64,000 bases of DNA from Patescibacteria group bacterium. GTDB lineage: Bacteria > Patescibacteriota > Microgenomatia > JAMCZE01. Positions 31,773 through 49,823 of the stretch are shown here, in pieces. The number at the start of each line of letters is the position of its first letter. Positions within the stretch are counted from its first letter, which is position 1. The translations under genes were made by a program, and so were the position numbers. Below the pieces are notes generated by a model. The model did not search any database. It was not told where the DNA came from and saw nothing but the letters and a program-made list of their open reading frames with translations. The stretch lies in the NCBI GenBank assembly GCA_023380635.1, contig JAMCRP010000001.1, positions 22,613-86,612 on the forward strand, in the 5' to 3' direction.

Positions 31773-33761
31773 TTAGTTTTTTAAATCAATAAAACAGTTA
31801 GAGGTACAACGGTCGGAAATGTTACTCCCCACCACTGTACCATAGACATCGCCCCCTTGCACCTGCCACCAGGGGGGCGGTACCACCTGGATATTGGCCG
31901 TGGTGGCTGAGCACTGGGAGCCGCCGTTAGTTAAGGTGGCCGTGGCGCTAATGTTGGCCGTTTGGGGGCTGGTGACTTTGACGGCCGAAACGATGGCCGT
32001 GGGGTTAGCCGACGGGTCATCGACAGTAATGGCCCCAGTATTGGAAGAAACCCAGTTAATTGAACTAACCGTGGCCGGGCCGGTAATGACCGGAATAGCC
32101 GTAATGCTCCCCTTTCTGTTGAAGTAGAAGGGATTAGGAATGGTAGGGTTTAAAGTCAGGGTACAGGTGGGACTGATAACGGTGATGGGGGCTGTTACCG
32201 GGGTGGAAGCGGTGCAAGTTCCTCCCCCGACAGCCAGGGTGGCTGTCACCGTTACCGTCGTGCTGCCGGCGTAGTTGGCGTGAATGGTGGCCGGGTTGGT
32301 GGTCGGAGTGGTAATCGTGGCGGCGGCCCCGGAGGTCGGGGTCCAGGAAAAAGTCGCGGCCTGCCCGGCAGGAAGAGTGTTTAAAGTCGTGGAAATGGTG
32401 CGATCCTGACTGACATAAAAAGTGCCGGAAGGACTTAAAACCGGGGTGGTTAAAGTGCAGGTAGGGGCCGCGACGGTGACACAAACAGTGTTGGAACAGG
32501 TATTGGTTCCGGGAGAAAGCGGGGCTGAGGCCGTAAAGCAGGTTTGGCCCACGGTCGTCGCACTGGCCCGGATAGTTACAGTACTACCAGTCGTCCCTCC
32601 GGTAAAGTCAGCTGAGGTTCCGGAAGTCCGGGTCCAGGTAATCGTTCCCAGCGTACCGCCGCTGGCGGCAAAATTAGCCGTCAAAGTCCCGGTGTTACCT
32701 AACTGAAAGGGGCTAGGAACATTCGTGGAAATGGTATTGCTAGCGCAAGTGGCCGGAGCCGGAGCGGAAACGGTGATTTGTTTAGCACTGCCGAGGCCAC
32801 AATAGCTCCAGCCGGTGGGATACCCAAAAGGGTTACCGGTGCACCGGCCGTAAGACGCGGCGGAGTTCACCCGGTTGTAGCCTTGGCAATAAACCCAGTA
32901 GGTCCCGGGATTTTGGAAAGTAAGTTGGGTGTTAACGGGGTTAGTCAGTTTAAGGCTGGTATTGGTGGTACTGCCGACCGTGCCATAGGGGCCACTGGCA
33001 TTGTTAGTGGAAGTGGGGCTGGTCCACAGATCGATCATGGTAGCCCCGTTAGCCGGGGTGTTAGTAAAAGTAACCGGCGTGCCGGTAGTGGCTGTTGCCG
33101 GTCCGGACACGGTGCAGGTGGGGTTACAGTAGACAGGCTGGTTACAGGCATCAGCACAGTTACTGATTTCGTTACAGGAACCAGCCGGAACACAGGAACC
33201 GTCAGCCGGGACCCAAAGACATTGTCCCCAGGCAACATCGCCATATTGCTGTAAAGTGGGGTCGCTGTGGACGGCCCGGGGCGGGCTGCCGGGATTGTTG
33301 TAAATATCCTTACACATGGCTTCAGTCCCCACATTTTCCGGCAAAAGGCAAACCGGGGTCCCGTTTAGGTCCAAGGGGTCGCGCCATTCGTGGTTTAAAT
33401 TTGTTCCGGCCGGCGGGCAGGATAGCCCGCTGCAGCCTGCAGAAGGTTGTAAAGTGCATTTTCCGGTACAAACACTGGTCGTGCCGCTACACATTTGCTT
33501 AGCTTCGGTATTAGTATCGCAGTAATAGATTTCTTGACCGCAGAAAGCATTTCCAACAGTACACTTAGAGGAAATTTGAACCCAACCTCCATTAGTAGAA
33601 CAGCCACTGCCGTAATATTCTCCACCAGAACAGGAGTCACAAGTCCAACTTGAGTAACTTTGAAATTGGCAGCCGGCAAGCACGATATTTTTAGAAAAGA
33701 GAAAAAGAAAGCCTATCAATACAAAGGCAAATATAGCTAAAACTAACCGGCGAAGAGCCAT
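31773..33761 (-). CDS. Large secreted Cys- and Thr/Ser/Gly-rich surface protein (paralog A of the gene at 47477-49453)
   Basis: N-terminal TM/signal, Cys-rich N-domain, long Thr/Gly/Ser-rich Ig-like repeats with PTCTLT junctions, conserved C-terminus PPPWWQVQGGDVYGTVVGSNIS; 662 aa; residues ~94-428 identical to paralog B. Confidence 0.6.
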   Translation of the reverse strand: MALRRLVLAIFAFVLIGFLFLFSKNIVLAGCQFQSYSSWTCDSCSGGEYYGSGCSTNGGWVQISSKCTVGNAFCGQEIYYCDTNTEAKQMCSGTTSVCTGKCTLQPSAGCSGLSCPPAGTNLNHEWRDPLDLNGTPVCLLPENVGTEAMCKDIYNNPGSPPRAVHSDPTLQQYGDVAWGQCLWVPADGSCVPAGSCNEISNCADACNQPVYCNPTCTVSGPATATTGTPVTFTNTPANGATMIDLWTSPTSTNNASGPYGTVGSTTNTSLKLTNPVNTQLTFQNPGTYWVYCQGYNRVNSAASYGRCTGNPFGYPTGWSYCGLGSAKQITVSAPAPATCASNTISTNVPSPFQLGNTGTLTANFAASGGTLGTITWTRTSGTSADFTGGTTGSTVTIRASATTVGQTCFTASAPLSPGTNTCSNTVCVTVAAPTCTLTTPVLSPSGTFYVSQDRTISTTLNTLPAGQAATFSWTPTSGAAATITTPTTNPATIHANYAGSTTVTVTATLAVGGGTCTASTPVTAPITVISPTCTLTLNPTIPNPFYFNRKGSITAIPVITGPATVSSINWVSSNTGAITVDDPSANPTAIVSAVKVTSPQTANISATATLTNGGSQCSATTANIQVVPPPWWQVQGGDVYGTVVGSNISDRCTSNCFIDLKN
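32473..33479. repeat. ~1007-bp tract exactly identical to 48177-49183 (offset 15704 bp) within the paralogous surface-protein genes
   Basis: Track ORFs 32422-32706/48126-48410, 32778-33254/48482-48958 and 33035-33334/48739-49038 translate identically. Manual alignment shows exact identity from 32473/48177 to 33479/49183. Flanks are ~80 percent identical on one side and diverge within ~30 bp on the other. Confidence 0.8.
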
Positions 33762-33807
33762 TAATTCAGATTAGCCTTTTTACTCCCCGGCCGTCAAGAG
33801 GATTTAT

Positions 33808-34398
33808 TTATTTCTTGGAAGACAAGTTCTGAAGGCTTTGAGCGGCTTTAACAAAAGCGAGATGATCGGGCATGGGCTTGTTTCCATCCAGGACGGTTCG
33901 CTGTTCCCAGTGAACTCCTCCGTCGACTGAGGACCAAATGCCAAAACCGGTATTAAAAGAAGGATAGACGCCCATAACATAAATGTCTTTTCCCAAAGCG
34001 ACACCGTCTTTAAAGAAACCTATGGCTTCCCCTTTAATCCCCGGGGTCGGGTCTTTGGTTTCGCTCAGAGATGTCCGGTACCATTGCTGAGAGCCTATTT
34101 CCCGTACTAAAACCGATCCCGGAAAGCTGCCGGCAGGATCGTTAGAGTTAAGCATCATAATTTCCGTCCTATGAGTCAGATCTTGAATCTTTTTTCCGCC
34201 ATACAAATGGGCGAGATCTTCGGGCTTATTGCCGGGTAGAGGGACGTACGCGCCAAAAACGGTGACATTCACGGTTTTAGCTTCAAGTTCTTGTGCGGGC
34301 AGAGAATGAACGACAGCTGCACCGCCAATGGCCATCCCGGTAGCAACACCAGCTATGACCCCGGTCTTAGCAAGTTTGTCTCTAGTTTCTTGCCCCAT
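33808..34398 (-). CDS. Membrane-anchored hypothetical protein with a BNR/Asp-box-like motif (SSVDGGVHW)
   Basis: N-terminal TM (GVIAGVATGMAIGGAAVV); S-x-D-G-G-x-x-W near C-terminus; 196 aa. Confidence 0.45.
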   Translation of the reverse strand: MGQETRDKLAKTGVIAGVATGMAIGGAAVVHSLPAQELEAKTVNVTVFGAYVPLPGNKPEDLAHLYGGKKIQDLTHRTEIMMLNSNDPAGSFPGSVLVREIGSQQWYRTSLSETKDPTPGIKGEAIGFFKDGVALGKDIYVMGVYPSFNTGFGIWSSVDGGVHWEQRTVLDGNKPMPDHLAFVKAAQSLQNLSSKK

Positions 34399-34448
34399 AG
34401 TTTTAATAATAAATTATAAGCATACTTTGTTTTATGTGTCAAGTATTT

Positions 34449-35417
34449 TTAATAACCCACGCACTGGAAAGCTGACGCGGAAGTTAACAGACGCTCAACT
34501 TCCTTAGGACTTTTGTCATAAAGTTTCCCCAAGCGGGTAAAGAGTTCTTCGGCGGGCATGCGATGGCCAAGACGGTTGGCCGGGTCTTCCCGGACCCAAT
34601 TTCGGTTGCTGTTAACCATGGCGGCAAAAAGATGCGGTTTATCCGGCTGGTTGAATTGCGCTGCGGCAGCGCGGAAAGCTTCGGCTCCGGCGTCATAATC
34701 AAAAGACCCGGTACTGTTAAGGCGGCAACCCTTAAATTTTGGGGTTTTGATCTCCGGGGTAAAAGCGTGGCTCGCCTCCAACTCGGCAAAGCGGGCGGTA
34801 GATTCTTCCATTCCCTGCCAAGGTTGGCCTTTCCATTCCAGTTCGATCAGTTCGTGAGTCCATTCATGGATAATCTGACCGGGGCTGCCCAGTTCTACCC
34901 GTCCGAAATATTTAAAGCCCCACCCCCCATCATTAATGCGGACAATATTAATATTCGGCAAAGTGCTTTCCAGGTATTGTGGCTCAACTCCCAAGCGCAA
35001 AAAAGTAAAAACTCCCACATAAGCGTCGGCCCGGACATAGCCCTTTTCTTCTTCAGTCCAGGGAATAATCTTTGCTCCTCCGAGGCTCGGAGCATTTTCA
35101 AAGGGCAGCTTGGCGACAATTTCCCGGGCAATCTGGTCAAAGCGGTCAAACTCTTCCATGCCGACAGCCGCCTGAGCTGTGGCCCGAATGTTTTTCTCCG
35201 GCTGGCTCTCGGGAAGCGGTGGTAATTCTACCGGAGATATTTCTGCAGCCGGAGGCAGATTTGGCTGGTCATGGGAGAGAAAACGGCTAAGGAAATTGAT
35301 GGCCGGTCTGGCCATAAAAGCTGTTCCCGCAGTAATAATAAGGGCTGACAAGCCCAGTTCTACTTTGCGTTTAGTGGCTTTTCCCAAGCCAAATTCCGCT
35401 GGCGACGCATCATTCAT
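34449..35417 (-). CDS. Putative secreted/membrane-anchored zinc metallopeptidase-like protein (HExxH motif)
   Basis: IHEWTHELIE contains HExxH; N-terminal hydrophobic anchor (LGLSALIITAGTAFMA); 322 aa; divergently oriented to pilB. Confidence 0.5.
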   Translation of the reverse strand: MNDASPAEFGLGKATKRKVELGLSALIITAGTAFMARPAINFLSRFLSHDQPNLPPAAEISPVELPPLPESQPEKNIRATAQAAVGMEEFDRFDQIAREIVAKLPFENAPSLGGAKIIPWTEEEKGYVRADAYVGVFTFLRLGVEPQYLESTLPNINIVRINDGGWGFKYFGRVELGSPGQIIHEWTHELIELEWKGQPWQGMEESTARFAELEASHAFTPEIKTPKFKGCRLNSTGSFDYDAGAEAFRAAAAQFNQPDKPHLFAAMVNSNRNWVREDPANRLGHRMPAEELFTRLGKLYDKSPKEVERLLTSASAFQCVGY

Positions 35418-35491: not shown

Positions 35492-37243
35492 ATGCCCGAT
35501 ACTGCCCAGGTACCGGTAGATGGTGCCGCTTCCCAGAACCGCTCGATTGAGGATGTCCTTTTTGAGAACAAACTGATTACGCCCGACCAGTTAAATCTGG
35601 TCAAGCTGGAATCGGTTAATTCCGGCAAACCCATCGAACAGATTCTGAAAGACCATGGCTTTGCCTCCAGCCAGGACATTATTAAAGCCCGTTCGGAAGT
35701 TCTGGGGATTCCCTACGCTGATCTTTCCGCCAAGGCAATTTTGCCGGAAGTTTTAGGTTTGGTGCCGGAAACTGTGGCCCGGCGCTATCAGGCGGTGCCG
35801 TTCCAGCTGGACCAGTCCGGGGAAACGCTGTCAGTGGCCATGGCCGACCCGCTGGATATTAACGCCATTTCCTTTCTGGAGAAAAAAACCGGTAAGAAAA
35901 TCCGGCCGTTCCTGTCCGCTCCGGAAATTATCAAATCCCTGGTCGACGAACGCTATAACCAGAACTTAACGACGGAAGTGTCGGCGGCTTTGGAGGAAGC
36001 CCCGACGGTGGGTGAATCTGCCGGAGCGGATCTTAGCAAAGTGGAAGGAATTATCCGGGACGCGCCGGTAGCCAAAATCGCTTCTTCCCTTTTGGATTTT
36101 GCCATCAAGTCCCGGGCTTCGGATATCCATATTGAACCTCTGGAGACTCACACCCGGGTGCGTTACCGCATTGACGGTATTCTTTACGAGAAGCTGGTTC
36201 TGCCTTCCCGGATCCACGACGCTCTGGTTTCCCGCATAAAAATTATGTCGGAGCTCAAAATTGACGAAAAAAGGGTGCCTCAAGATGGCCGGTTTAATTA
36301 TAAAAGCGGCGGCAACGAAGTCGATGTCCGGGTGTCAACGCTGCCGACAGCTTTCGGCGAGAAAGTGGTCATGCGGCTATTGCGCAAAAGCGGCGGTGTT
36401 CCCACCTTGCAGGATTTAGGATTGCGCGGCCTGGCGCTTAAAAATCTGGAAACGGCCATTTTGCGTCCTCACGGGATTATTATTGTCTGCGGGCCGACCG
36501 GTTCCGGGAAAACCACGACTTTATACTCCGTTTTGTCGAAAATTAATTCCACTAAAGTAAATATCGTTACTTTGGAAGATCCGGTTGAATACCAAATTGG
36601 CGGGGTCAACCAGGTGCAGATTAACCCGGCCGCGGGACTGACTTTTGCCACCGGGCTGCGGTCGTTTTTACGCCAGGATCCTAATGTTATTCTTGTCGGT
36701 GAAATCCGGGACGGCGAAACGACCGATCTGGCCATTCAGGCTGCCCTGACGGGTCATCTGGTCTTCTCGACTTTGCACACCAGCAATGCTTCCGGAGCTA
36801 TTCCCCGCCTTTTGGATCTGGGCGGCGAGGCGTTTCTTCTGGCTTCATCCATGAACGCCATGGTCGGTCAAAGAATTTTGCGTAAAATCTGTCCCAAGTG
36901 CAAAGAGCCTTATGAACCGCCGGAAATTATGGCCAACGACATCCGCACGGTTTTAGGCAAATACCTCACTCCCGATAAACTGGTTAACGGCAAACTGATG
37001 CTTTATAAAGGCAAGGGTTGTTCGGAATGCGGCGACTCCGGGTTTTTGGGCCGGGTGGGAATTTTTGAAGTCTTACCGGTGACGGATAAAATTGCCAAAC
37101 TGGTCTTGACCCGGGCGGACGCGGGAGAAATTGAAAGACAGGCTGTGGAAGAAGGCATGATGCCGATGAAAGTTGATGGGTACCTTAAGGCCGTTGAGGG
37201 AGTAACGACAATTGAAGAAGTGCTGCGCGTAGCGCAAGACTAA
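35492..37243 (+). CDS. pilB: Type IV pilus assembly ATPase PilB (GspE family)
   Basis: N-terminal GSPII domain, Walker A VCGPTGSGKTTTLYS, Asp box, Walker B, tetracysteine motif CPKC...CSEC; 583 aa. Confidence 0.9.
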   Translation: MPDTAQVPVDGAASQNRSIEDVLFENKLITPDQLNLVKLESVNSGKPIEQILKDHGFASSQDIIKARSEVLGIPYADLSAKAILPEVLGLVPETVARRYQAVPFQLDQSGETLSVAMADPLDINAISFLEKKTGKKIRPFLSAPEIIKSLVDERYNQNLTTEVSAALEEAPTVGESAGADLSKVEGIIRDAPVAKIASSLLDFAIKSRASDIHIEPLETHTRVRYRIDGILYEKLVLPSRIHDALVSRIKIMSELKIDEKRVPQDGRFNYKSGGNEVDVRVSTLPTAFGEKVVMRLLRKSGGVPTLQDLGLRGLALKNLETAILRPHGIIIVCGPTGSGKTTTLYSVLSKINSTKVNIVTLEDPVEYQIGGVNQVQINPAAGLTFATGLRSFLRQDPNVILVGEIRDGETTDLAIQAALTGHLVFSTLHTSNASGAIPRLLDLGGEAFLLASSMNAMVGQRILRKICPKCKEPYEPPEIMANDIRTVLGKYLTPDKLVNGKLMLYKGKGCSECGDSGFLGRVGIFEVLPVTDKIAKLVLTRADAGEIERQAVEEGMMPMKVDGYLKAVEGVTTIEEVLRVAQD

Positions 37244-37244
37244 A

Positions 37245-38312
37245 ATGACAATACAATCACTTTTACAAACTACAATTGACCGGAACGCTTCGGATTTACA
37301 TTTAATTTCGGGTTATCCGTCTACAATCCGGATTGACGGCAATCTCCTCCCTTTGCAACCGGAACCGCTTTCTGACACTGATATCGCCCAAATGCTTTCC
37401 GTCTTTTTAACTCCTGACCAAAAAAAGATTTTTGAACAGAACCACGAACTGGATTTTGGCTACACTTTCGGTAAAGGCAGGTTCCGGATTAATACCTACT
37501 ACCAGAAAGGAGCGCCGGCAGTCGCTTTCCGGTTAATCCCGCTAAGCGTTCGTAAAATCGACGAACTGAACTTGCACCCGGCCTGCCACGATCTGGCGGC
37601 GTTAAAACAGGGTTTTGTCCTGGTGACCGGGCCGACAGGCCACGGTAAGTCCACAACCATTGCTGCCATCATTGAGGAAATTAACGAAAATTTTGGCGGC
37701 CACATTCTGACCGTTGAAGACCCGATCGAGTATATTTTCTCTCCGGCCAAGGCAATTGTTTCTCAGAGAGAAGTCGGCGGTGACACCCATTCCTGGAATA
37801 ATGCCTTGCGGGCAGCTCTTCGCGAAGACCCGAATGTGGTGTTTATCGGGGAAATGCGGGATTTCGAAACAATTGAGGCGGCTTTGACGATCGCCGAGAC
37901 CGGGCATCTGGTTTTTGCTACGCTGCACACCAACTCTGCCGCCCAGTCTATCGACCGGGTGGTGTCCGTTTTTCCGGAAGCCCAACAGGCGCAGGTGCGG
38001 CTTCAGCTTTCCAATACGCTGGAAGCAATTATTTCTCAGCGGCTGGTGCCGATGGTAAGTTCCGGCCGGGTTCCGGCGATGGAAGTGCTTCTGGGTTCTT
38101 CGGCGGTCCGGTCGGTGATCCGGGAAGGCAAAACCCATCTGCTGGATAACATTATCCAGACTTCTATGGACGCCGGAATGTGTACTATGGATATGTCCCT
38201 GGCCCGCCTGGCCGCCGCCGGCAAAATTTCCTACGAGACAGCCCTGGCCTATGCCAATTCTCCTGAAGACCTGAACGGAATTATCAAGAGTAAATCAGTA
38301 ACGGGTTTGTAA
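37245..38312 (+). CDS. pilT: Type IV pilus retraction ATPase PilT
   Basis: Walker A LVTGPTGHGKSTT, GEMRD, AETGHLVFATLHTNSAAQ; 355 aa. Confidence 0.9.
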   Translation: MTIQSLLQTTIDRNASDLHLISGYPSTIRIDGNLLPLQPEPLSDTDIAQMLSVFLTPDQKKIFEQNHELDFGYTFGKGRFRINTYYQKGAPAVAFRLIPLSVRKIDELNLHPACHDLAALKQGFVLVTGPTGHGKSTTIAAIIEEINENFGGHILTVEDPIEYIFSPAKAIVSQREVGGDTHSWNNALRAALREDPNVVFIGEMRDFETIEAALTIAETGHLVFATLHTNSAAQSIDRVVSVFPEAQQAQVRLQLSNTLEAIISQRLVPMVSSGRVPAMEVLLGSSAVRSVIREGKTHLLDNIIQTSMDAGMCTMDMSLARLAAAGKISYETALAYANSPEDLNGIIKSKSVTGL

Positions 38313-38320
38313 AGCCTACT

Positions 38321-39532
38321 ATGAAACAGTTCACCTATCGCATTCGCAAGCCTGACGGGGTGATTGCTACCGGGGTAATTGAAAGCGTTTCTCCGCAGAC
38401 AGCAGCCCGGACTCTTCAGGAGCGTAAATACCTGGTCTTAAACATCGCCGAAAAACGCAGCTGGGATATAAATAGTATTCTGGGCAGTTTTGGCCAAAAA
38501 GCCTCTTCCCGGGAAATCGCCCAGTTTACCCGGCTGCTGGCAACAATGCTTTCGACCGGATTACCGCTGACCGACGCTCTTTCCAATCTGGTAAGCCAGG
38601 CAAAAAACGGCTATTTTCGGGAAGTACTGCAGACAATCATGCATGATGTCCAGGGGGGCGTGGCTCTTTCCGAAGCCATGAACCGTCACCCCAAGGTCTT
38701 TAATGATCTTTATGTCAATCTGGTGAAAGCCGGCGAAGCTTCGGGAAAGGTTGATGAGGCTCTGGCCAAACTGGCGGACACCCTTGAATCCAATCTGGAT
38801 TTTCAGTCCAAGGTTAAAGGGGCCATGATCTACCCGGCAGTGGTGACGGTCGCCATGACCGGCATTGGCTTCTTTATGATCACCAATATCATCCCCCAAA
38901 TCGCTAATGTTTATAAAGAATTCGGGGCCGACTTGCCTCTTCCCACCCGGATTCTGATCGGGATTGCAAATTTTATTACCAATTACACTATTATCGTTGC
39001 CGCGATAATCGGCCTGATTTACTACACTTTCCGGACCCTGAAGAAAAATCCTTCCAGCGAATATTTGATTAACAATTTCTTTTTTAAAATCCCGATTTTC
39101 GGGCCGTTGTCCTGGGAAGTCAATTTGGCGGTGGTCTGCCGGACTTTGGGCACTCTTCTGGCTTCGGGAGTCGCTATTTTAGATGCTTTGCGGATTGTTT
39201 CCAAAACCGTCGGGAATAATTCCTTGCGTTCCGGACTGGTCGAGGCGGCAGCGATGGTGGAAAAAGGCTTGCCTCTTTCTTTGGCTTTGCGGCGCAACGA
39301 AAATTTTCCCATTATGATGTCGCAGCTGATTGCCATCGGCGAAGAAACCGGTACTCTGGATAAAAGTCTGGAGAGGCTCTCAAAATTTTACCAGGACTCG
39401 GCTGAGGTGAAAGTAAAGGCTCTCACGACTCTTCTTGAACCGATAATGATTCTTTTAATGGGCGGCATGGTGGCCGGGTTGGCTCTTGCCGTCTTGTTGC
39501 CAATGTTTAATCTTGTTAATGTTATTAAATAA
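38321..39532 (+). CDS. pilC: Type IV pilus inner-membrane platform protein PilC (GspF family)
   Basis: Two GspF repeats each with a TM segment, conserved LLEPIMILLMGGMVAGLA C-terminus; 403 aa. Confidence 0.9.
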   Translation: MKQFTYRIRKPDGVIATGVIESVSPQTAARTLQERKYLVLNIAEKRSWDINSILGSFGQKASSREIAQFTRLLATMLSTGLPLTDALSNLVSQAKNGYFREVLQTIMHDVQGGVALSEAMNRHPKVFNDLYVNLVKAGEASGKVDEALAKLADTLESNLDFQSKVKGAMIYPAVVTVAMTGIGFFMITNIIPQIANVYKEFGADLPLPTRILIGIANFITNYTIIVAAIIGLIYYTFRTLKKNPSSEYLINNFFFKIPIFGPLSWEVNLAVVCRTLGTLLASGVAILDALRIVSKTVGNNSLRSGLVEAAAMVEKGLPLSLALRRNENFPIMMSQLIAIGEETGTLDKSLERLSKFYQDSAEVKVKALTTLLEPIMILLMGGMVAGLALAVLLPMFNLVNVIK

Positions 39533-39545
39533 AGGAGGTGAAATT

Positions 39546-40025: not shown

Positions 40026-40028
40026 AGC

Positions 40029-40858: not shown

Positions 40859-40868
40859 GGTACGGCCC

Positions 40869-40946
40869 TTGACAAGCGGATTTTTTTATTTCACTATGAA
40901 TACATAGTGGAAAACCTAAAGCCGCCCTCACTAAGGTTATGGCGGC
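40869..40946 (+). promoter_or_regulatory. Candidate promoter (TTGACA ... TATGAAT) plus two hairpins in the leader of pilin paralog 4
   Basis: TTGACA at 40869-40874, TATGAA at 40895-40900 (spacing ~20 bp). Palindrome cactatg-aata-catagtg (40892-40909). gccgcc-N14-ggcggc (40921-40946). Followed by GGGGGG RBS and ATG 40963. Confidence 0.35.
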
Positions 40947-40962
40947 CGAAGGGGGGTGAATC

Positions 40963-41439: not shown

Positions 41440-41441
41440 TT

Positions 41442-41497
41442 CTTTACTCGCGCGAGTAAAGAAGCAAAAAACCCTGCCCTAACCGGTGGGGTTTTTG
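41442..41497 (+). terminator. Rho-independent terminator(s) after the pilin array
   Basis: Perfect palindrome tttactcgcgcgagtaaa (41443-41460), then aaaaaccctgcc-ctaacc-ggtggggttttt (A-tract, 12-bp stem with two G-U pairs, T-tract), likely bidirectional. Confidence 0.6.
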
Positions 41498-41510
41498 GTA
41501 GTATTAGACC

Positions 41511-42281: not shown

Positions 42282-42805
42282 TCGAACTGCTGATCTCTTT
42301 AGCCATCATGGCCATAATCGGGGTGCTGGCTTTTTACGGCATTCAAGATTTCAATGTTAACCAGGCGGTGTCCGATGCTCAGCATAACTTTATTTCTGAT
42401 CTGCGGGCCACGCAAAACCAGGCGGCTCTCGGAGCAGACGGAGTCAATTTTAAGACGGTGTGGGTAAACACCGGTTCTCCGGATCAGTACACGATTTCTT
42501 ATACCGTTCCTCTTTCAAATAATCTGGTTTCTGTAACTAAAATACTCCCGACCGGAGTCACGGTTTCGGCTCCCAATCCGGCAAATTTTACGGTTTGTTT
42601 GGCCAACCCCAAGCTGACCGGATATACCACCGGACAATGCGGCAACTGTGCCGTAGCTGGTTCAGAAGCGTTTTTTGCTTGCAACAACGGGACGAAAGTT
42701 GATAGTAACTATCTGGATGTGACCTTCTCCCGGGGCTCGGTTTCCAAAACTGTCCGCATCGAAGGCAATGGTATGGATATCAGCAGAATATATGCGCTCG
42801 ACTAG
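42239..42805 (+). CDS. Minor pilin / pseudopilin with atypical prepilin cleavage site (…SRA|YTLIELL)
   Basis: Track ORF begins at 42092 inside pilD. First in-frame ATG after that is 42239 (MDKYRSYHSRAYTLIELLISLAIMAIIG). Hydrophobic prepilin-type N-terminus with Glu at +5; 188 aa from this start. Confidence 0.5.
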   Translation: MDKYRSYHSRAYTLIELLISLAIMAIIGVLAFYGIQDFNVNQAVSDAQHNFISDLRATQNQAALGADGVNFKTVWVNTGSPDQYTISYTVPLSNNLVSVTKILPTGVTVSAPNPANFTVCLANPKLTGYTTGQCGNCAVAGSEAFFACNNGTKVDSNYLDVTFSRGSVSKTVRIEGNGMDISRIYALD

Positions 42806-43238
42806 AGGCATGACCCTTATCGAAACCATCCTCGCCCTTTTAGTGCTGGCGGCCGTGACTTCGGCGGTAATCCTGCTTTTGACCCAGATTATGGCCCTAA
42901 CCACTTCCGCCCGGCTGCGAAATACCGCTACAGCGATGGCGGAACAAAACCTGGAGAAAATCAGGAGCTTTTATCAGGTTAATTTTTGGATGAATCTGGC
43001 TAACAAAGGCTCTTCCGGCGGAACCTGCTATATTGATACTGCCGGAATTTTAAATTTAGACACCGGAGCGACTTGTGTGACGGATTGCAGCAGTTTGGGC
43101 AGCAACGGTTTTCGCCAAAATGTAAAGTTGACGACCGATTCTGGCCTTAGCCGGGTTCAGGTCGATTCGTCGGTCTGGTGGCAGGACAAGGGGGCTTGTC
43201 AGCACCTTACCTCCACGACTTATTATTTTAATTACTGA
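42792..43238 (+). CDS. Minor pilin / pseudopilin
   Basis: MRSTRGMTLIETILALLVLAAVTSAVILL: leader ending in G, Met+1, Glu+5; start at the internal Met of the track ORF 42768-43238. Confidence 0.55.
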   Translation: MRSTRGMTLIETILALLVLAAVTSAVILLLTQIMALTTSARLRNTATAMAEQNLEKIRSFYQVNFWMNLANKGSSGGTCYIDTAGILNLDTGATCVTDCSSLGSNGFRQNVKLTTDSGLSRVQVDSSVWWQDKGACQHLTSTTYYFNY

Positions 43239-43798
43239 TGCGTAAGGGCTTTACTCTGATCGAAATTATTGTCGTTATCGCCGTTTTCGGCGTTTTAATG
43301 CTAGCCGGAACAAGTTTTTTAATATCAGTTATCCGTAATGCCAATCAGGTGCGGATTCAAAACGATGTCCGCCAGACGGCCAGTCAAATTATGGAAGACA
43401 TTGCTTCGGAAATGCGTTCGGCGACAGATGTCACTTTCTCGTCCGGCTTAACGCAGAATGTTTTGACTATCACTAATACCACGATTGTGCCAAGCAGAAC
43501 AGTGGTATATACAGCTTATAATACCGGGAAACTGACGAAAACAGTTAATAGCGGAGCGCCGTTGGATTTTACTTCGGATAATAATGACACCACTTCTCAA
43601 AGCGAGGCGGTTGTTTTGGATACTTCTGCTGTTTCCTGTGATGACAGCCTTCATGCGGCCAAGGGTCTGCAGGTGGTTGTGGGGACTAACCTGGCTACTG
43701 ATATTACCCTGACTCTTCAGCAGGCAACGAAATATGTCACTCCCGATTTTTGTGCCCGAATCCAGCTTAAAAATACCCTGGTGCCAAGACGGTACTAG
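43238..43798 (+). CDS. Minor pilin (GspJ/PilW-like)
   Basis: MRKGFTLIEIIVVIAVFGVLMLAGTSF prepilin N-terminus; 186 aa. Confidence 0.65.
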   Translation: MRKGFTLIEIIVVIAVFGVLMLAGTSFLISVIRNANQVRIQNDVRQTASQIMEDIASEMRSATDVTFSSGLTQNVLTITNTTIVPSRTVVYTAYNTGKLTKTVNSGAPLDFTSDNNDTTSQSEAVVLDTSAVSCDDSLHAAKGLQVVVGTNLATDITLTLQQATKYVTPDFCARIQLKNTLVPRRY

Positions 43799-43834
43799 AC
43801 GATGCGGCAAATTTTACGCTATCATGTACTTAAG

Positions 43835-44698
43835 ATGATAAAAACCAGGCGCGGGCAGGTGATGGTTTTAGTCCTCCTTTTGTCCCTGATGGGACTGACA
43901 GTCGGTTTGGCCACCGCTTCCAGGTCGCTGTCCGATTTAAAACAGATCTCTTATGTTGATCAGGGCACCAAAGCTTTTGCCGGAGCGGAAGCCGGGTTGG
44001 AATATGTTTTAAACATGTTGGGCAATGTGTCGACTCTTGACCCGACTTGGTGTACGAGCGACCAATCGATCTCCTCTACTGACTTGAGTATTACCGGGGT
44101 TAAAAGCCTGACTTATCGGGTTTGTTCCCACACCGCTAATCAGACAATTTATCCCAACTTGGCCAAGGATAATGTAATGCAAATCAATTACAACAATGTT
44201 AGCAACACAAAACTTTTTACGATTTTTTGGAAATCACCGGCGGCAATTGAGGCAATTCGGGTGGATAAATCGAACCTTATTACCCGGTATGCTTATAACC
44301 CTTATAATCCTACGGGGAGCATAGTGGCTAATAATCTGCTGAGTTCTTATTCGACCGGTGATGTCATTAACTGTCCGTCGAGTTGTCTAAATGGAGTTCC
44401 GGATTCCGGAAGCTACACCAGTTGCAGCGGCGGTTCTAACAGTTCAAATGCTATTCCCTATGTGCCTAACGACCAGTTTCTGCGGATAAAAGCGCTTTAT
44501 TCATCGACCCCGGTGGTTATTTGTGCGGTTAATTCGGGAAACAGCGCGGTGAATATGCCTGAGGCTTATACCGTTATCACCATGACGGCCACAACGGATA
44601 ACGGTACGGTTAAAAGACTGCAGGTGACAAAGTTGCCTCCGGCTCTTCCTTCCATTTTTGATTACGCGATTTATTCCGGCGGACAAATAGCCAAGTAA
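43835..44698 (+). CDS. PilX-like pilus assembly protein (PilX N-terminal domain)
   Basis: MIKTRRGQVMVLVLLLSLMGLTVGLATASRSLSDL resembles the PilX_N consensus (RGxALVxVLLLLxxLTLLGLAAxRSS); 287 aa from the Met at 43835 (track ORF starts at 43802). Confidence 0.5.
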   Translation: MIKTRRGQVMVLVLLLSLMGLTVGLATASRSLSDLKQISYVDQGTKAFAGAEAGLEYVLNMLGNVSTLDPTWCTSDQSISSTDLSITGVKSLTYRVCSHTANQTIYPNLAKDNVMQINYNNVSNTKLFTIFWKSPAAIEAIRVDKSNLITRYAYNPYNPTGSIVANNLLSSYSTGDVINCPSSCLNGVPDSGSYTSCSGGSNSSNAIPYVPNDQFLRIKALYSSTPVVICAVNSGNSAVNMPEAYTVITMTATTDNGTVKRLQVTKLPPALPSIFDYAIYSGGQIAK

Positions 44699-44713
44699 CA
44701 GTTATTCCTGCCC

Positions 44714-45751
44714 ATGAAATTTCAATCTCATATCGGTTTAGACATTGGTTCTCAGGGGATTAAACTGGTCCAGCTTTCAGTTTCCGGCCCGGATAAATTT
44801 TCTCTTTCAGCCATTGGCCAGATTAACACCCCGCCGGTTGGCGCCAATCAGGTGGAAGCCAATGAAGCTAAAGTCGAGACAATCAAAAAGCTTTTGCACG
44901 ATAGCCACGCCGGGAGTCGTCAGGCAGTCATCTCTCTTCCCGAATCCCAAGTTTATACCCGGGTAATCGAAATGCCAAGAATGTCGGAAGCGGAATTGGC
45001 GCAGGCGATTCGCTGGCAGGCGGAGCAGTATATTCCCGTACCCCTGTCCGATGTAGTTTTAAAACACCAACTGCTATCGGGTTCTGACGAGAGTGACAGT
45101 CCGGACGCGAAATGTAATGTCTTATTAATTGCCGCGCCTAATTTACTCTTAAATAGTTATGTCAGCCTTCTTTCCCGGGCCGGCTTGGAAACCGTGGCCA
45201 TCGAAACGGAGATTTTAGCCGTGGCCCGCGCCTTAGTTGGTGCGGACGCTTTTTCCCCCACTTCCCTGCTGGTACACATGGGGGCGGAAACGACAACCCT
45301 GTCAATTATTTCCCGCGGGAATTTGTCGTTAACCCAAAGTATTTCCACCGGCGGCATGGCTATTTCCCGGGCGGTCGCCTCGAGTCTGGGGCTGGAAATT
45401 AATCAGGCGGAAGAATACAAACGCTCTTACGGGATGGACGAAACCAAGCTGGAAGGCAAAGTTGTGACGGCGATCAAACCGATGATTGATTTAGTTCTGG
45501 CAGAGATCAAAAAAGTGCTGGCGTTTTACGAAACCCACGGCTTCAAAGATCCGGTAAAACGGGTGGTACTTTCCGGCGGCACGGCTCTTCTACCCGGCTT
45601 GGTGGGTTATCTGAGCGTTAATCTGGAAGTCGAGGTTCAGGTTGGTAATCCCTTCCTGAGTGTAAATCTTTCTGACAAGCAGCGCCAGGAGCTTGGCGAA
45701 AACGGTCCGCTTTACGCTACTGCTGTCGGACTGGCTCAAAAACAGACATGA
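44714..45751 (+). CDS. pilM: Type IV pilus assembly protein PilM (actin-like ATPase fold)
   Basis: IGLDIGSQGIKLVQL N-terminal motif and FtsA/actin-like fold signatures (LSGGTALLPGL); 345 aa. Confidence 0.8.
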   Translation: MKFQSHIGLDIGSQGIKLVQLSVSGPDKFSLSAIGQINTPPVGANQVEANEAKVETIKKLLHDSHAGSRQAVISLPESQVYTRVIEMPRMSEAELAQAIRWQAEQYIPVPLSDVVLKHQLLSGSDESDSPDAKCNVLLIAAPNLLLNSYVSLLSRAGLETVAIETEILAVARALVGADAFSPTSLLVHMGAETTTLSIISRGNLSLTQSISTGGMAISRAVASSLGLEINQAEEYKRSYGMDETKLEGKVVTAIKPMIDLVLAEIKKVLAFYETHGFKDPVKRVVLSGGTALLPGLVGYLSVNLEVEVQVGNPFLSVNLSDKQRQELGENGPLYATAVGLAQKQT

Positions 45752-46290
45752 TTGATATTAATCTCCTGCCACCGCAAAACGTGCTCTCACAAAAAGAGAA
45801 AATCCTACGAAGTCAACTGACTGTCGCGGCTATTATCGGAGGCGTGGTGACGGCTCTAGTTTTAGGGTCATTAGCTCTGATCAACGCTTACTACTCTGCC
45901 CGCCTGTCAGCGGTCGCGGCCCGACGGACCAGTCTCACGGCGCAGTTTAATGCTGTTCAAAAAACCGCTCTGGATTTGCGCCTGATTAAGGATAAAATAG
46001 CCGGAATTAATTCCATCAAAACTTCCCAGACGCAATTTCCTCCGATTCTGGATGATCTAACAGCCCTGTTTTCCGGAGGTTTTCAGCTAACCCAGCTTTC
46101 TGTTGATCAAACGCAAAAGACCAGCTTTGCCGGAATAACCGCCGGGCCGGAGTCTTTTAACACCCTGCTGGGTCGGATTATTGCCGGTCGGGATGCAAAC
46201 AAGTACGGGCAAATCGAACTTTCCGGCTTACGGGAAAACAAGGACAAGACTTTGAGTTTTTCAATTCAGATGCTTTATGAAAACAAATAA
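45748..46290 (+). CDS. pilN: Type IV pilus assembly protein PilN
   Basis: MIDINLLPP... start typical of PilN, single TM then coiled coil; 4-nt overlap with pilM; 180 aa. Confidence 0.65.
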   Translation: MIDINLLPPQNVLSQKEKILRSQLTVAAIIGGVVTALVLGSLALINAYYSARLSAVAARRTSLTAQFNAVQKTALDLRLIKDKIAGINSIKTSQTQFPPILDDLTALFSGGFQLTQLSVDQTQKTSFAGITAGPESFNTLLGRIIAGRDANKYGQIELSGLRENKDKTLSFSIQMLYENK

Positions 46291-46981
46291 TAGCCTGGAT
46301 TTGAAAAAAATTAGGCCTTATTTTTTCTTCATTTTCCTTTTTGTGGTTTTTGCCGCCGAGCTTGGGGTTCTGGTGATCTTTGCTCCGTCGTTGTATTCGA
46401 CAATTCTTTCGGCCCGGGCGTCTTTGGCCGCACAGACGGCGGAAGTCAACACTCTTTCTGACCTAGTGACAGCTCTTAACCAGACAGACCCCGCTAATTT
46501 AGCGGCTCTGCAAAAGAAAGTGACGGCTGCTTTGCCGGATGAGAAAAAAACTGCCGGGGTGGTGACGGGCTTAACTCGCCTGGCTTCGAGTTCCGGAGTG
46601 GTGGTTAACAGCCTGGAATTTTCCCCGGGACTGATTTCTACCGGTTCAGCAACGGCGGTCGTGACAAATACTTCCGGCGAAATAGTCTTAGGTGGCGGTG
46701 TTAAAGCCATTCCGGCCCAGTTGACGGTTACGGCTGATGTTCCGGCTGTCTCTCGTTTTTTGGCGGACTTGGCCAAATCCAGCCAGATGATCGGGGTAAC
46801 CAGCGTTGAATACACTCATTCCGGTCCCAAGACAAGCACCGCCCTGGGACTTTTACTTTATTTTCAACCGCCAAAAGAAGGGGCCGTTACTCCCAAACAA
46901 GTTCAGCCTTTAACTTCCCAGGAGGTTGGTTTAGCCCAGAGTTTGCCGCAGGAGGATATTTTTACTGTTGCGCCAGAGTAA
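46277..46981 (+). CDS. PilO-like pilus assembly protein
   Basis: Single TM, coiled-coil then beta-rich periplasmic-type domain, positioned after pilN; 234 aa. Confidence 0.5.
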   Translation: MKTNNSLDLKKIRPYFFFIFLFVVFAAELGVLVIFAPSLYSTILSARASLAAQTAEVNTLSDLVTALNQTDPANLAALQKKVTAALPDEKKTAGVVTGLTRLASSSGVVVNSLEFSPGLISTGSATAVVTNTSGEIVLGGGVKAIPAQLTVTADVPAVSRFLADLAKSSQMIGVTSVEYTHSGPKTSTALGLLLYFQPPKEGAVTPKQVQPLTSQEVGLAQSLPQEDIFTVAPE

Positions 46982-47195
46982 CATTAACCCTGGTGTTTTG
47001 TTTCACGGCCAAAATACGCACCAGGTCGCGGATGGCTTTAATAATCCGGCCGCCCTTACCAATGACTTTGCCCATGTCCGGTTGAGCCACGGTCAGATTT
47101 AAATTTACAAAGCCTTCATTGTTGATTTCTTCCACGGCCACGGCTTCCGGCTCATCAACGATATTTTTAACCAGATATTCTAAAAGGTCTTTCAT
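46962..47195 (-). CDS. KH-domain RNA-binding protein (YlqC/UPF0109 family)
   Basis: VIGKGGRIIKAIRDLV (GxxG KH loop); immediately downstream of rpsP as in many bacteria; 77 aa. Confidence 0.8.
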   Translation of the reverse strand: MKDLLEYLVKNIVDEPEAVAVEEINNEGFVNLNLTVAQPDMGKVIGKGGRIIKAIRDLVRILAVKQNTRVNVTLAQQ

Positions 47196-47434
47196 TATTT
47201 AGCGTTTTTCCTTAGAAGAGCTTCGACAGTAGCAGTGGGTTTGGCGCCAACGGACAACCAGTAATCAACCCTCTCTTTTTTCAGTTCCAGTTTGTTGTCA
47301 GGGCTATGCGGATCATAGGTTCCCACAATTTCCCGGGCTTTCCCGTCTCTTTTGAGGTGTTCATCAATGGCAATAAGACGGTAAACGGGGTTTCCGGTTT
47401 TGCCAAATCTGGATAGTCTAAGTTTTACAGCCAT
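47195..47434 (-). CDS. rpsP: 30S ribosomal protein S16
   Basis: MAVKLRLSRFGKTGNPVYRLIAIDEHLKRDGKAREIVGTYDP is canonical S16; 79 aa. Confidence 0.9.
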   Translation of the reverse strand: MAVKLRLSRFGKTGNPVYRLIAIDEHLKRDGKAREIVGTYDPHSPDNKLELKKERVDYWLSVGAKPTATVEALLRKNAK

Positions 47435-47476
47435 GGAGTGATTTTACTATTTCCGCAGCCTTGATGCAATCACCGT

Positions 47477-49453
47477 CTAGTTTTTCAAATTAATATAGCA
47501 GTTAGATGAACAGGAAGGTGAAATGTTACTCCCCACCACTGTACCATAGACATCGCCCCCTTGCACCTGCCACCAGGGGGGCGGTACCACCTGGATATTG
47601 GCCGTGGTGGCTGAGCACTGGGCACCGCCGGGGGTTAAAGTGGCGGTGGCGGTCACGGCGGCTGTTTGGGGGCTAGTCACTTTGACGGCGGAAACGATCG
47701 TGGTCGGGTCAGCGGCGGGGTTATCGATCGTAATCGCGCCGGGGTTGGAAGAGACCCACTGAACGGTTCTTGACTGGATAGGGCCGGTGACCACAATATT
47801 AGCCGTGATACTCCCCTTGCGGTTAAAGTAAAACGGATTGGGAATGGTCGGACTTAGGGTCATAGTGCAGGTGGGGTTAACCACCGTAATGGGGCTGGCA
47901 ACCGGGGTCGTAGCGGTGCAGGTGTTTCCTCCGACATTAAGCGTGGCGGTGACGGTGACGGCCGTGCTGCCGGCGTAATTAGCGTGGATGGTAGCTGGAT
48001 TGGTTGTGGGGGTGGTAATGGTGGCAGCGGCTCCAGAGGTCGGAGTCCAGGAAAAAGTCGCGGCCTGTCCGAGAGGGTTGGTGGTTAAAACGGAAGAAAT
48101 GCTGCGGTCCTGGCCGGTGTAAAAAGTGTCGGACGGATTTAAAACCGGCGGGGTTAAAGTGCAGGTGGGGGCAGCCACGGTGACACAAACAGTGTTGGAA
48201 CAGGTATTGGTTCCGGGAGAAAGCGGGGCTGAGGCCGTAAAGCAGGTTTGGCCCACGGTCGTCGCACTGGCCCGGATAGTTACAGTACTACCAGTCGTCC
48301 CTCCGGTAAAGTCAGCTGAGGTTCCGGAAGTCCGGGTCCAGGTAATCGTTCCCAGCGTACCGCCGCTGGCGGCAAAATTAGCCGTCAAAGTCCCGGTGTT
48401 ACCTAACTGAAAGGGGCTAGGAACATTCGTGGAAATGGTATTGCTAGCGCAAGTGGCCGGAGCCGGAGCGGAAACGGTGATTTGTTTAGCACTGCCGAGG
48501 CCACAATAGCTCCAGCCGGTGGGATACCCAAAAGGGTTACCGGTGCACCGGCCGTAAGACGCGGCGGAGTTCACCCGGTTGTAGCCTTGGCAATAAACCC
48601 AGTAGGTCCCGGGATTTTGGAAAGTAAGTTGGGTGTTAACGGGGTTAGTCAGTTTAAGGCTGGTATTGGTGGTACTGCCGACCGTGCCATAGGGGCCACT
48701 GGCATTGTTAGTGGAAGTGGGGCTGGTCCACAGATCGATCATGGTAGCCCCGTTAGCCGGGGTGTTAGTAAAAGTAACCGGCGTGCCGGTAGTGGCTGTT
48801 GCCGGTCCGGACACGGTGCAGGTGGGGTTACAGTAGACAGGCTGGTTACAGGCATCAGCACAGTTACTGATTTCGTTACAGGAACCAGCCGGAACACAGG
48901 AACCGTCAGCCGGGACCCAAAGACATTGTCCCCAGGCAACATCGCCATATTGCTGTAAAGTGGGGTCGCTGTGGACGGCCCGGGGCGGGCTGCCGGGATT
49001 GTTGTAAATATCCTTACACATGGCTTCAGTCCCCACATTTTCCGGCAAAAGGCAAACCGGGGTCCCGTTTAGGTCCAAGGGGTCGCGCCATTCGTGGTTT
49101 AAATTTGTTCCGGCCGGCGGGCAGGATAGCCCGCTGCAGCCTGCAGAAGGTTGTAAAGTGCATTTTCCGGTACAAACACTGGTGGTCCCGCTGCACATCT
49201 GTTTGGCTTCTGCCGGACTACCACATTGATAAGTTTGTGAATAGTTACACGATTCTCCAGCACTACAACCGTCATGAATAGTGACACTTGAGTTACTGAC
49301 GCTACATGATCCTCCTACGGGACAGACTCCGCCACCACAAGCAAACCAATCATTAGTCATGGTACAGCCCGCAAAGACTTGGTTGTGCAGAAGAGGAAGA
49401 GTAAAAAGAAGTGATAACCAAATAAAAACAAAAATGGCGACTTTTTGCCCCAC
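47477..49453 (-). CDS. Large secreted Cys- and Thr/Ser/Gly-rich surface protein (paralog B of the gene at 31773-33761)
   Basis: 658 aa; N-terminal hydrophobic segment; central 335 aa identical to paralog A; C-terminal third ~80 percent identical including the PPPWWQVQGGDVYGTVVGSNIS terminus. Confidence 0.6.
   Translation of the reverse strand: MGQKVAIFVFIWLSLLFTLPLLHNQVFAGCTMTNDWFACGGGVCPVGGSCSVSNSSVTIHDGCSAGESCNYSQTYQCGSPAEAKQMCSGTTSVCTGKCTLQPSAGCSGLSCPPAGTNLNHEWRDPLDLNGTPVCLLPENVGTEAMCKDIYNNPGSPPRAVHSDPTLQQYGDVAWGQCLWVPADGSCVPAGSCNEISNCADACNQPVYCNPTCTVSGPATATTGTPVTFTNTPANGATMIDLWTSPTSTNNASGPYGTVGSTTNTSLKLTNPVNTQLTFQNPGTYWVYCQGYNRVNSAASYGRCTGNPFGYPTGWSYCGLGSAKQITVSAPAPATCASNTISTNVPSPFQLGNTGTLTANFAASGGTLGTITWTRTSGTSADFTGGTTGSTVTIRASATTVGQTCFTASAPLSPGTNTCSNTVCVTVAAPTCTLTPPVLNPSDTFYTGQDRSISSVLTTNPLGQAATFSWTPTSGAAATITTPTTNPATIHANYAGSTAVTVTATLNVGGNTCTATTPVASPITVVNPTCTMTLSPTIPNPFYFNRKGSITANIVVTGPIQSRTVQWVSSNPGAITIDNPAADPTTIVSAVKVTSPQTAAVTATATLTPGGAQCSATTANIQVVPPPWWQVQGGDVYGTVVGSNISPSCSSNCYINLKN
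48177..49183. repeat. Second copy of the exact ~1007-bp repeat (see 32473-33479)
   Basis: Same evidence as for the first copy. Confidence 0.8.
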
Positions 49454-49813: not shown

Positions 49814-49823
49814 ACCCTATAGT

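Follow-up and report, generated by a model that had tools for sequence, protein, structure and literature searches.

Gene conversion between paralogous surface-protein genes is well documented in pathogens. Neisseria pilE/pilS, Borrelia vlsE and Mycoplasma genitalium MgPa each comprise one expression site and several truncated, promoterless donors, often with a dedicated cis element. Concerted evolution of the tufA/tufB type has reportedly been described in enterobacteria, and gene conversion at tuf is RecA-dependent. Patescibacteria, which have tiny genomes with few repeats, are thought to rely on pili and surface proteins for attachment to host cells, and a full-text literature search returned no report of gene conversion among surface-protein paralogs in this group. 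In Helicobacter pylori, adhesin paralogs of the bab (babA/babB/babC) and sab type exchange segments by intragenomic homologous recombination (PMC4552749). Here, we analyze a 64-kb stretch of Patescibacteria DNA (the window) in which two genes, A and B, flank a type IV pilus operon. Both genes are intact, and we consider it probable that they are old paralogs under purifying selection that have undergone recent gene conversion (concerted evolution).

Like A and B, the bab and sab genes are adhesin-type paralogs, expressed from separate loci, that form chimeric genes with tracts of identity inside diverged sequence. The bab genes share their 5' and 3' ends and are specific in the middle, whereas A and B share the middle and are specific at the N-terminus. 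Further differences are that no CT-repeat phase switch is seen in A or B, that the protein families are unrelated, and that the A/B host is a monoderm-type member of the Patescibacteria rather than a pathogen. In the tuf pair, too, gene conversion keeps two functional copies alike although they are widely separated on the chromosome, but there the whole gene for a core housekeeping protein is homogenised, as opposed to one module of an accessory near-orphan gene. With pilE/pilS, vlsE and MgPa, the A/B pair would have in common non-reciprocal recombination acting on a surface-protein gene, yet it shows neither truncated promoterless donors nor a dedicated cis element.

Two intact genes on either side of a pilus operon

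Gene A (31773..33761, minus strand; NCBI MCL4397472.1, locus tag M1403_00335) encodes 662 amino acids, and gene B (47477..49453, minus strand; MCL4397492.1, M1403_00435) encodes 658. Our description of A is based on its open reading frame and translation, an exact cluster look-up, and an architecture drawn from homologues and a domain model. Each gene has a start codon (GTG in B), encodes a signal peptide and ends in a true stop (TAA in A, TAG in B). They lie as direct repeats 15,704 bp apart on one contig, and exact look-up places both on the same 559,045-bp NCBI contig. Cysteine makes up 5.1-5.2% and threonine 16% of both translations, which agrees with the description of ~660-residue secreted Cys/Thr-rich proteins in an earlier, sequence-only reading of this DNA; its word "giant" does not suit proteins of 660 residues. 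Both are probably secreted, presumably to the cell surface, and may have a role in host attachment. A promoter-like site (49460..49488, minus strand; TTGACA-17-TATTCT) ends 6 nt ahead of the GTG start of B, and a weaker one was read by eye for A.

The two proteins are 83% identical overall. In both, a signal peptide is followed by a Cys-rich region, an Ig-like sandwich, three Big_2-like repeats and, at the C-terminus, the motif WWQxxGGDVY (WWQVQGGDVY in A). A full-length AlphaFold model of A has a pLDDT of 39.9 and is unusable, and neither protein reaches any Pfam threshold. Repeats of homologues that align to A 343-640 pass the Big_2 (PF02368) cut-off of 22.8 bits, with 65.9 bits in P0003, 55.1 in P0007 and 28.6 in P0011. 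Together with P0008 and P0009, these are Patescibacteria surface proteins that have Big_2 Ig repeats and, at the C-terminus, a WWQxxGDV motif. They share with A and B a Cys-rich N-terminal region with an 'AEAK..C' motif, Ig-like repeats and a C-terminus of the form WWQV.GGDVY...C..NCYI[DN]L; A and B differ from them in having an additional Ig-like sandwich and additional repeats. In searches for orthologues, a word-based search of 5.8 billion proteins recovered only the pair itself, an exhaustive HMMER search of 1.84 billion representatives gave nothing beyond weak domain-level matches, and none were found among GTDB genomes or JGI metagenomes. A and B are lineage-specific near-orphans.

The type IV pilus operon (35492..46981, plus strand) sits between the two copies, as the sequence-only reading had it. 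It encodes PilB, PilT, PilC, four pilins, PilD, minor pilins, a PilX-like protein and PilM, along with a likely PilN and a PilO-like protein (weak PilO match). The stretch that the direct repeats enclose also holds genes for a KH-domain protein and ribosomal protein S16 (rpsP; 46962..47434, minus strand). Gene A belongs to a block of five genes (28805..35417, minus strand; 755-aa, 238-aa, A, 196-aa and 322-aa products) between a holB-like gene and pilB, and B to a block of three (47477..51047, minus strand; B, 105-aa and 407-aa products) between rpsP and rnc. The only syntenic relative recovered, L001, shares the pilus operon and the neighbouring genes and lacks both blocks, so that it carries neither A nor B; L002 was too short to be used in this comparison. 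None of five homologue contexts contains pilus genes nearby, and we set aside a conserved functional link between A/B and the pilus on that count (0/5). Duplication of a three-gene cassette (322-aa/196-aa/A and 407-aa/105-aa/B) is not established: the 322-aa and 407-aa proteins share a weak 45-aa similarity (E=7e-4), and the 196-aa and 105-aa proteins share none. The 407-aa protein is an ORFan, for which the word-based search of 5.8 billion proteins returned no match other than itself.

Exact tracts within diverged genes

Self-BLASTN aligns 31774-33506 with 47478-49210 at 91.0% identity, the sole repeat in the 64-kb window. All 160 mismatches across the 1733 aligned nt fall outside a 1007-bp tract, 32473..33479 in A (minus strand; codons 95-429) and 48177..49183 in B (minus strand; codons 91-425), which is the longest exact run at the fixed offset of 15704. 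The base-for-base identity reported earlier for these intervals is confirmed (0/1007 positions differ), with no scattered differences when the two genes are compared pairwise. The tract encodes the latter half of the Cys-rich region, the Ig-like domain and Big_2-like repeat 1, and by Nei-Gojobori counts contains 0 differences in 251 synonymous and 754 nonsynonymous sites. The next longest exact runs are of 103 bp and 23 bp. When mismatches were shuffled over the 726 non-core nt, the longest run was at most 53 bp in 20,000 trials; analytically, P is about 1e-9 for a run of at least 104 and falls to about 1e-106 at 1007.

The 103-bp tract lies at the genes' 3' ends (31816..31918 in A and 47520..47622 in B, both minus strand) and encodes ...TTANIQVVPPPWWQVQGGDVYGTVVGSNIS. 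It was missing from the sequence-only reading's list.

Between the tracts, A and B differ at 22% of bases. This diverged segment, 31919..32472 in A (minus strand) and 47623-48176 in B, encodes Big_2-like repeats 2 and 3; its identity is 65-86%, its mismatches are chiefly at third codon positions, and its per-window pS values are 0.40, 0.61, 0.67, 0.59 and 0.26. Over the C-terminal 233 codons, dS is 0.77, dN 0.14 and dN/dS 0.18 (Nei-Gojobori), and local dS in homologous sequence adjoining the core reaches 1.1-1.7. Identity at the nucleotide level here is 78%, close to the ~80% given earlier for the C-terminal third. By codon position, mismatches number 91, 39 and 24 at positions 3, 1 and 2 (59% at position 3), lack base-specific bias, and comprise 82 transitions and 78 transversions. 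The 22% divergence, its concentration at third positions and these dS and dN/dS values indicate that the copies are old, that both are under purifying selection, and that the middle was homogenised very recently. Homology is limited to coding sequence and stops at the stop codons. Read-through of the stops into an in-frame downstream ORF was considered and rejected: A stops at TAA and B at TAG, and the homology goes no further.

Upstream of the core, the N-terminal segments (33480..33761 in A, minus strand; 49184-49453 in B) encode the signal peptide and first Cys-rich stretch, and nucleotide homology runs only ~27 nt into them. Over the N-terminal 97 codons dS is saturated and dN is 0.67. The description of the N-termini as unrelated holds insofar as the first ~85 aa of A and B, compared alone, are not significantly similar (BLASTP E=0.08). 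It does not hold for their layout: a signal peptide, an 'AGC' site and a Cys pattern are common to the N-termini of A, B, P0008 and P0011, and from these shared features those of A and B are probably very diverged homologues. GC3 is 0.59-0.65 in the homologous part and 0.35 in the N-termini, against 0.51 ± 0.05 in the window's genes, a contrast that is only suggestive of GC-biased conversion, given the small samples and the confounding effect of amino-acid composition.

Weighing explanations for the shared tract

An exact 1007-bp repeat is longer than short-read k-mers, so its resolution requires scaffolding logic, and assemblers merge near-identical paths, by which a few true A/B differences could be lost. 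The genes might then be real while the tract is not truly identical (through a popped bubble or consensus) or the flanks are mispaired across it, an account we consider unlikely. Evidence on this point comes from an independent k=31 de Bruijn assembly (Logan) of SRA run SRR10278331, a run not mentioned in the literature searched. All four unique-to-repeat junctions are present in it, on three contigs that are 100% identical to the window. SRR10278331_5504 ends at 49154, 30 nt into copy B of the 1007-bp tract; SRR10278331_100793 ends at 33450, 30 nt into copy A, and at 47549, 30 nt into copy B of the 103-bp tract; and SRR10278331_7200 starts at 31845, 30 nt into copy A of that tract. All four ends thus reach into an identical tract by exactly k-1 = 30 nt. 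The graph therefore branches where the metagenome-assembled genome puts the start of the repeat, which makes chimerism or misjoining in the assembly very unlikely. Contig _100793, at 14,100 bp (47549-33450+1), runs from the 5' end of A through the pilus operon and rpsP to the 3' end of B, linking them physically. The alternative pairing of flanks would move the pilus operon and rpsP off the chromosome onto a 15.7-kb circle and disrupt the holB-pilB and rpsP-rnc neighbourhoods of L001. The repeat is therefore present in the sequenced DNA, and the earlier suggestion of a collapsed or chimeric assembly is largely refuted. Bubble-popping could have hidden single-base differences in the tract, so that its perfect identity may be slightly overstated; since only sparse differences can be concealed in this way, the two copies of the tract would in any case be much closer to each other than the 22%-diverged flanks are. 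The partial proteins expected from the Logan core and C-terminal unitigs had no exact match, but even a cut gene that is listed in L010 went unmatched, so this lack of matches carries no weight.

Three further accounts take the repeat as real. Surface-type proteins next to a pilus locus, with non-reciprocal transfer between copies, recall the programmed variation of Neisseria pilE/pilS or Borrelia vlsE, in which a silent donor feeds an expressed gene, and the sequence-only reading had proposed that one copy acts as a donor cassette. Both copies are complete genes, however, with signal peptide, start and stop, a dN/dS of 0.18 and, in B, a promoter-like site of its own, and a silent donor is accordingly not supported. 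Moreover, the window holds only two copies, the word-based search of 5.8 billion proteins gave no further homologue, the transferred part is the conserved middle rather than a variable segment within conserved flanks, and no G-quadruplex (G4) motif occurs in or near either gene; we regard programmed variation as highly improbable. Two initially different genes could instead each have gained the same ~1-kb module by lateral transfer or duplicative insertion, as the lack of significant similarity between N-terminal parts compared alone and the location of A and B within lineage-specific blocks missing from L001 might suggest. Yet homology extends 700 nt 3' of the core at a graded 65-91% identity with a signature of purifying selection, so the genes were already paralogs along most of their length; core codon usage matches the genome's preferred codons, and relatives of the core elsewhere amount to weak domain-level matches among 1.84 billion representatives. 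Recent acquisition of the module is thus very unlikely. Selection on the nucleotide sequence itself, for instance on an embedded RNA or regulatory element, has nothing in its favour beyond the identity, finds no Rfam match in the tract region, and fits poorly with 1007 changeless nt beside saturated synonymous sites in the same frame; it is almost certainly not the cause. Two other candidates were rejected: a diversity-generating retroelement, as most ORFs between 28.2 and 51.8 kb were scanned and gave no Pfam/NCBIfam reverse-transcriptase match and the mismatches are of all types rather than confined to adenines, and G4-driven variation, as neither gene has a G4 motif within or beside it.

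Probable gene conversion and its implications

Recent gene conversion between paralogs, as the sequence-only reading proposed, best accounts for the absence of differences in 251 synonymous sites next to sequence with a dS of 0.77. Two homologous copies occur in one genome, the identity of the tract is significantly above that of adjoining homologous sequence, and the four junctions of the k=31 assembly show the repeat to be real; coding-only homology that ends at the stops, and branching of the independent assembly at the tract boundaries, agree with this reading. In the mechanism we propose, homologous recombination, putatively of the RecA type, would have overwritten ~1 kb of one gene with the sequence of the other in a non-reciprocal transfer, wiping out every difference over codons 95-429. 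The 103-bp 3' patch may have been homogenised along with it, through patchy heteroduplex repair, or on another occasion. As the tract reaches within 27 nt of the end of nucleotide homology, its 5' limit was probably set by loss of homology. In the remaining homologous part, identity drops with distance from the two exact tracts, a gradient suggesting that conversion has recurred with varying end points and that the central module is still evolving in concert. Sequence specific to each copy would persist in the N-terminal ~90 residues and the two distal Ig-like repeats. Genes for RuvC and RecG in the window show that late recombination functions are available; no recA was seen in its 64 kb, and that gene may lie outside.

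This is probably ordinary gene conversion in a little-studied lineage, and no new class of mechanism. It offers a worked example of how a true repeat can be told from an assembly artefact by means of an independent public assembly. A bolder idea, which we think improbable, is that the pair forms a two-slot shuffling system for episymbiont attachment proteins, coupled to repeat-driven amplification of the pilus operon. If so, a shared and continually homogenised stalk module would keep both genes competent for recombination, partner specificity could be changed by swapping the N-terminal Cys-rich heads and distal repeats peculiar to each copy, and the 1-kb direct repeats would permit RecA-mediated tandem amplification of the enclosed operon, with deletion of the repeat-bounded interval blocked by the presence of rpsP inside it. 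Short of that, gene conversion here would mean that accessory surface genes are subject to active homologous recombination in such a small, repeat-poor genome, and it marks this near-orphan, lineage-specific pair beside a pilus operon as a candidate for studies of host interaction.

Exact tracts within two diverged paralogs

Gene A (31773-33761, minus strand; 662 aa, MCL4397472.1, M1403_00335) and gene B (47477-49453, minus strand; 658 aa from a GTG start, MCL4397492.1, M1403_00435) lie on one 559,045-bp NCBI contig of a 'Patescibacteria group bacterium' MAG. Alignment of the window to itself with a shift of 15704 bears out the ~1 kb tract described in the sequence-only reading: 32473-33479 and 48177-49183 agree at every one of 1007 bp, a stretch hereafter called the core. 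Self-BLASTN returns a single repeated pair in the 64-kb window (31774-33506 versus 47478-49210, 91.0% identity), with 160 mismatches per 1733 aligned bases and none inside the core. The next-longest exact runs are one of 103 bp (31816-31918 and 47520-47622), missing from that reading's list, followed by one of just 23 bp. In 20,000 trials that redistributed the mismatches at random among the 726 positions outside the core, no run was longer than 53 bp; the analytic probability of a run of at least 104 bp is ~1e-9, and of 1007 bp ~1e-106. Homology between the genes ends at their stop codons (TAA in A, TAG in B). On the 5' side, nucleotide homology is lost 27 nt past the core, so that this tract probably extended to the limit of usable homology.

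Nei-Gojobori counts on a codon alignment of A and B indicate that the core and its flanks differ sharply in age. In the core (335 codons), dS and dN are both 0 (0 differences at 251 synonymous and 0 at 754 nonsynonymous sites; dN/dS not applicable), with an upper 95% bound that we calculate as 3 changes per 251 synonymous sites, or dS <0.012, less than 2% of the flank value. In the C-terminal segment (233 codons), dS is 0.77, dN 0.14 and dN/dS 0.18, and 91 of 154 mismatches fall at codon position 3; in the N-terminal segment (97 codons), dS is saturated, dN is 0.67 and dN/dS is not estimable. A and B are therefore old duplicates, both under purifying selection, and the identity of the core is very recent. 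Similarity between the genes declines with distance from either exact tract, with C-terminal pS per 40-codon window of 0.40, 0.61, 0.67, 0.59, 0.26 and 0.29, a pattern that would fit several conversions differing in age and end points. GC3 is 0.59-0.65 in the mutually homologous parts of A and B and 0.35 in their copy-specific N-terminal parts, against an average of 0.51 ± 0.05 for genes of the window; this contrast might reflect GC-biased conversion, or merely amino-acid composition.

Repeat junctions in an independent assembly

Four window proteins were looked up in Logan, an independent assembly, and led to three contigs of SRA run SRR10278331, all gapless and 100% identical to the window; the 407-aa neighbor of B is also on record there. 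Each of the four contig ends near the repeats lies 30 nt into an identical tract. Contig _5504 (19,165 bp) stops at 49154, in core copy B, whose boundary is 49183. Contig _100793 (14,100 bp, equal to 47549-33450+1) runs from 33450, in core copy A (boundary 33479), to 47549, in the B copy of the 103-bp tract, and _7200 (12,167 bp) has its end at 31845, in the A copy of that tract. We take Logan's de Bruijn graph to use k=31, so that 30 nt is k-1, and contigs ending there show the behavior of such a graph at a true branch point. All four unique-to-repeat junctions are therefore present in the reads, and the graph branches coincide exactly with the tract boundaries of the MAG.

These junctions make a chimeric assembly, or a misjoin across the repeat, very unlikely. 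Contig _100793 joins the 5' end of A, the entire pilus operon, rpsP and the 3' end of B in one molecule, and the 103-bp tract is within the span of single reads; inference is needed only for pairing across the 1007-bp core. The alternative pairing of flanks would move the pilus operon and rpsP off the chromosome onto a 15.7-kb circle, and would contradict the holB-pilB and rpsP-rnc adjacency of L001 (CAYPLU010000007.1), a contig from the only syntenic relative recovered. The suggestion of a collapsed or chimeric repeat is thus largely refuted. The assembler may have merged a small number of genuine differences within the core, which would soften the phrase 'base for base' and leave the conclusion unchanged.

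A near-orphan family beside a conserved pilus operon

Both proteins open with a hydrophobic signal sequence ending AGC and are rich in cysteine (5%) and threonine (16%); at ~660 aa each, they are not the giant proteins they had been called. Neither scores above any Pfam or NCBIfam threshold, and an exhaustive HMMER search of 1.84 billion representatives returned only 16 matches, the best besides B at E = 4e-12. Among these homologs, P0008 and P0011 have in common with A and B the Cys-rich N-terminal region (motif C.[TS].AEAK..C) and the C-terminus WWQV.GGDVY...C..NCYI[DN]L. Repeats in P0003, P0007 and P0011 that align to A 343-640 exceed the Big_2 threshold, and P0005, P0006, P0010, P0015 and P0016 match A 205-338. 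A full-length model of A was too poor for use; residues 205-338, modeled with homologs, give a beta sandwich (pLDDT 76.9) that is closest in the PDB to V-type immunoglobulin domains (TM ~0.5), a predicted generic Ig-like fold. Codons 95-429 form the core, which contains the Ig-like sandwich flanked by the second half of the Cys-rich region and by the first Big_2-like repeat. By sequence, the earlier description of unrelated N-termini is nearly true (BLASTP of the 85 N-terminal residues alone, E = 0.08), yet the cysteine pattern suggests a distant common origin.

Two genes downstream of A lies a gene for a 755-aa secreted Cys-rich protein (28805-31072, minus strand). Over its C-terminal ~130 aa it resembles the C-terminal domain that long-form relatives of A and B carry after WWQ..GDV (tblastn E=1e-4 against P0009 on its contig). 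Since A and B terminate 25 aa past this motif, this genome seems to divide the long form over two separate genes.

As the sequence-only reading had noted, A and B bracket a type IV pilus operon, encoding PilB, PilT, PilC, four pilins, PilD, minor pilins, a PilX-like protein, PilM and a PilO-like protein. Within the same interval, the minus strand carries rpsP and the gene for a KH-domain protein. L001 (amino-acid identity 84% for GyrB, 66% for PilB, 58% for PilC) keeps the same order of gyrB, a holB-like gene, pilB through pilO, KH, rpsP and rnc. It has nothing in place of a five-gene block at 28805-35417 (755-aa, 238-aa, A, 196-aa and 322-aa genes) or a three-gene block at 47477-51047 (B, 105-aa and 407-aa genes). 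A and B are therefore parts of lineage-specific accessory blocks on both sides of a conserved operon, and this one comparison would be compatible with gain here or loss there. Five family homologs whose contexts we examined have no pilus genes nearby, so the family as a whole does not keep this adjacency, and to tie the genes functionally to the pilus is only a guess.

Other features of the region can be recorded here. Positions 1-20024 of L001 are labeled 'uncultured Gammaproteobacteria bacterium' yet are syntenic gene for gene with the window, and the bin is probably mislabeled. The tandem array of four pilin genes at 39486-41439 (plus strand), which carry prepilin N-methylation motifs, corresponds to two main matching stretches in L001 (11305-11772 and 11835-12323); the pilin set may have expanded in this genome. 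Upstream of A, we read by eye a HEWTH (HExxH) motif in the 322-aa membrane-anchored protein (34449-35417, minus strand) and a BNR-like SVDGGVHW motif in the 196-aa protein (33808-34398, minus strand); neither has a Pfam or NCBIfam match. The 238-aa gene starts in frame directly after the TAA of A (…DLKN*MKIKK…; 31772-31775). We rejected read-through, as B ends in TAG with no counterpart ORF, and regard this as tight gene packing. Between a membrane-protein gene and a XerC/D-like recombinase gene, the 930 bp at 18993-19923 contain no ORF longer than 62 aa, and no Rfam family matches them credibly. Sigma-70-like -35/-10 pairs precede pilB (35454-35483), B (49460-49488; TTGACA-17-TATTCT, ending 6 nt upstream of the start codon), the 105-aa gene (49821-49849) and the 407-aa gene (51056-51084); for A, a weaker site, TTGACG-18-TAATCT, was read by eye. 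In pilB, B and the 105-aa and 407-aa genes the -10 hexamer ends just 6-8 nt before the start codon, suggesting leaderless transcripts, one of which would begin at a GTG.

Probable gene conversion between the paralogs

With a core dS of 0 against 0.77 in the flank, and with real junctions, the proposal of recent gene conversion is supported, and RecA-type conversion between two paralogs, both probably expressed, is the best-supported reading of the sequence. The window encodes RuvC and RecG; recA was not seen within its 64 kb. The idea that one copy is a silent donor cassette is rejected: it fails every defining feature, and both copies look functional, each with an uninterrupted frame, low dN/dS and a signal peptide. 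A DGR and G4-driven variation were also excluded, and no Rfam family overlaps the core. As direct repeats, the tracts could in addition recombine to delete the 15.7-kb interval or to duplicate it in tandem; a deletion should be lethal, since rpsP would be lost with it, and a duplication would be possible.

Concerted evolution of the tufA/tufB type provides the general model for such exchange. The closest well-studied parallel is the bab/sab adhesins of Helicobacter pylori, where intragenomic recombination between loci yields chimeric genes (PMC4552749). The geometry is reversed: bab genes share their ends and differ in the middle, whereas A and B share the middle. In our full-text literature search, no paper described conversion between paralogs in Patescibacteria. 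Conversion is ordinary among bacterial surface genes, and what we describe is a known phenomenon in an unusual lineage and a near-orphan gene family; its added value lies in that lineage, in the place of the genes beside a pilus operon, and in the clean independent check of the repeat.
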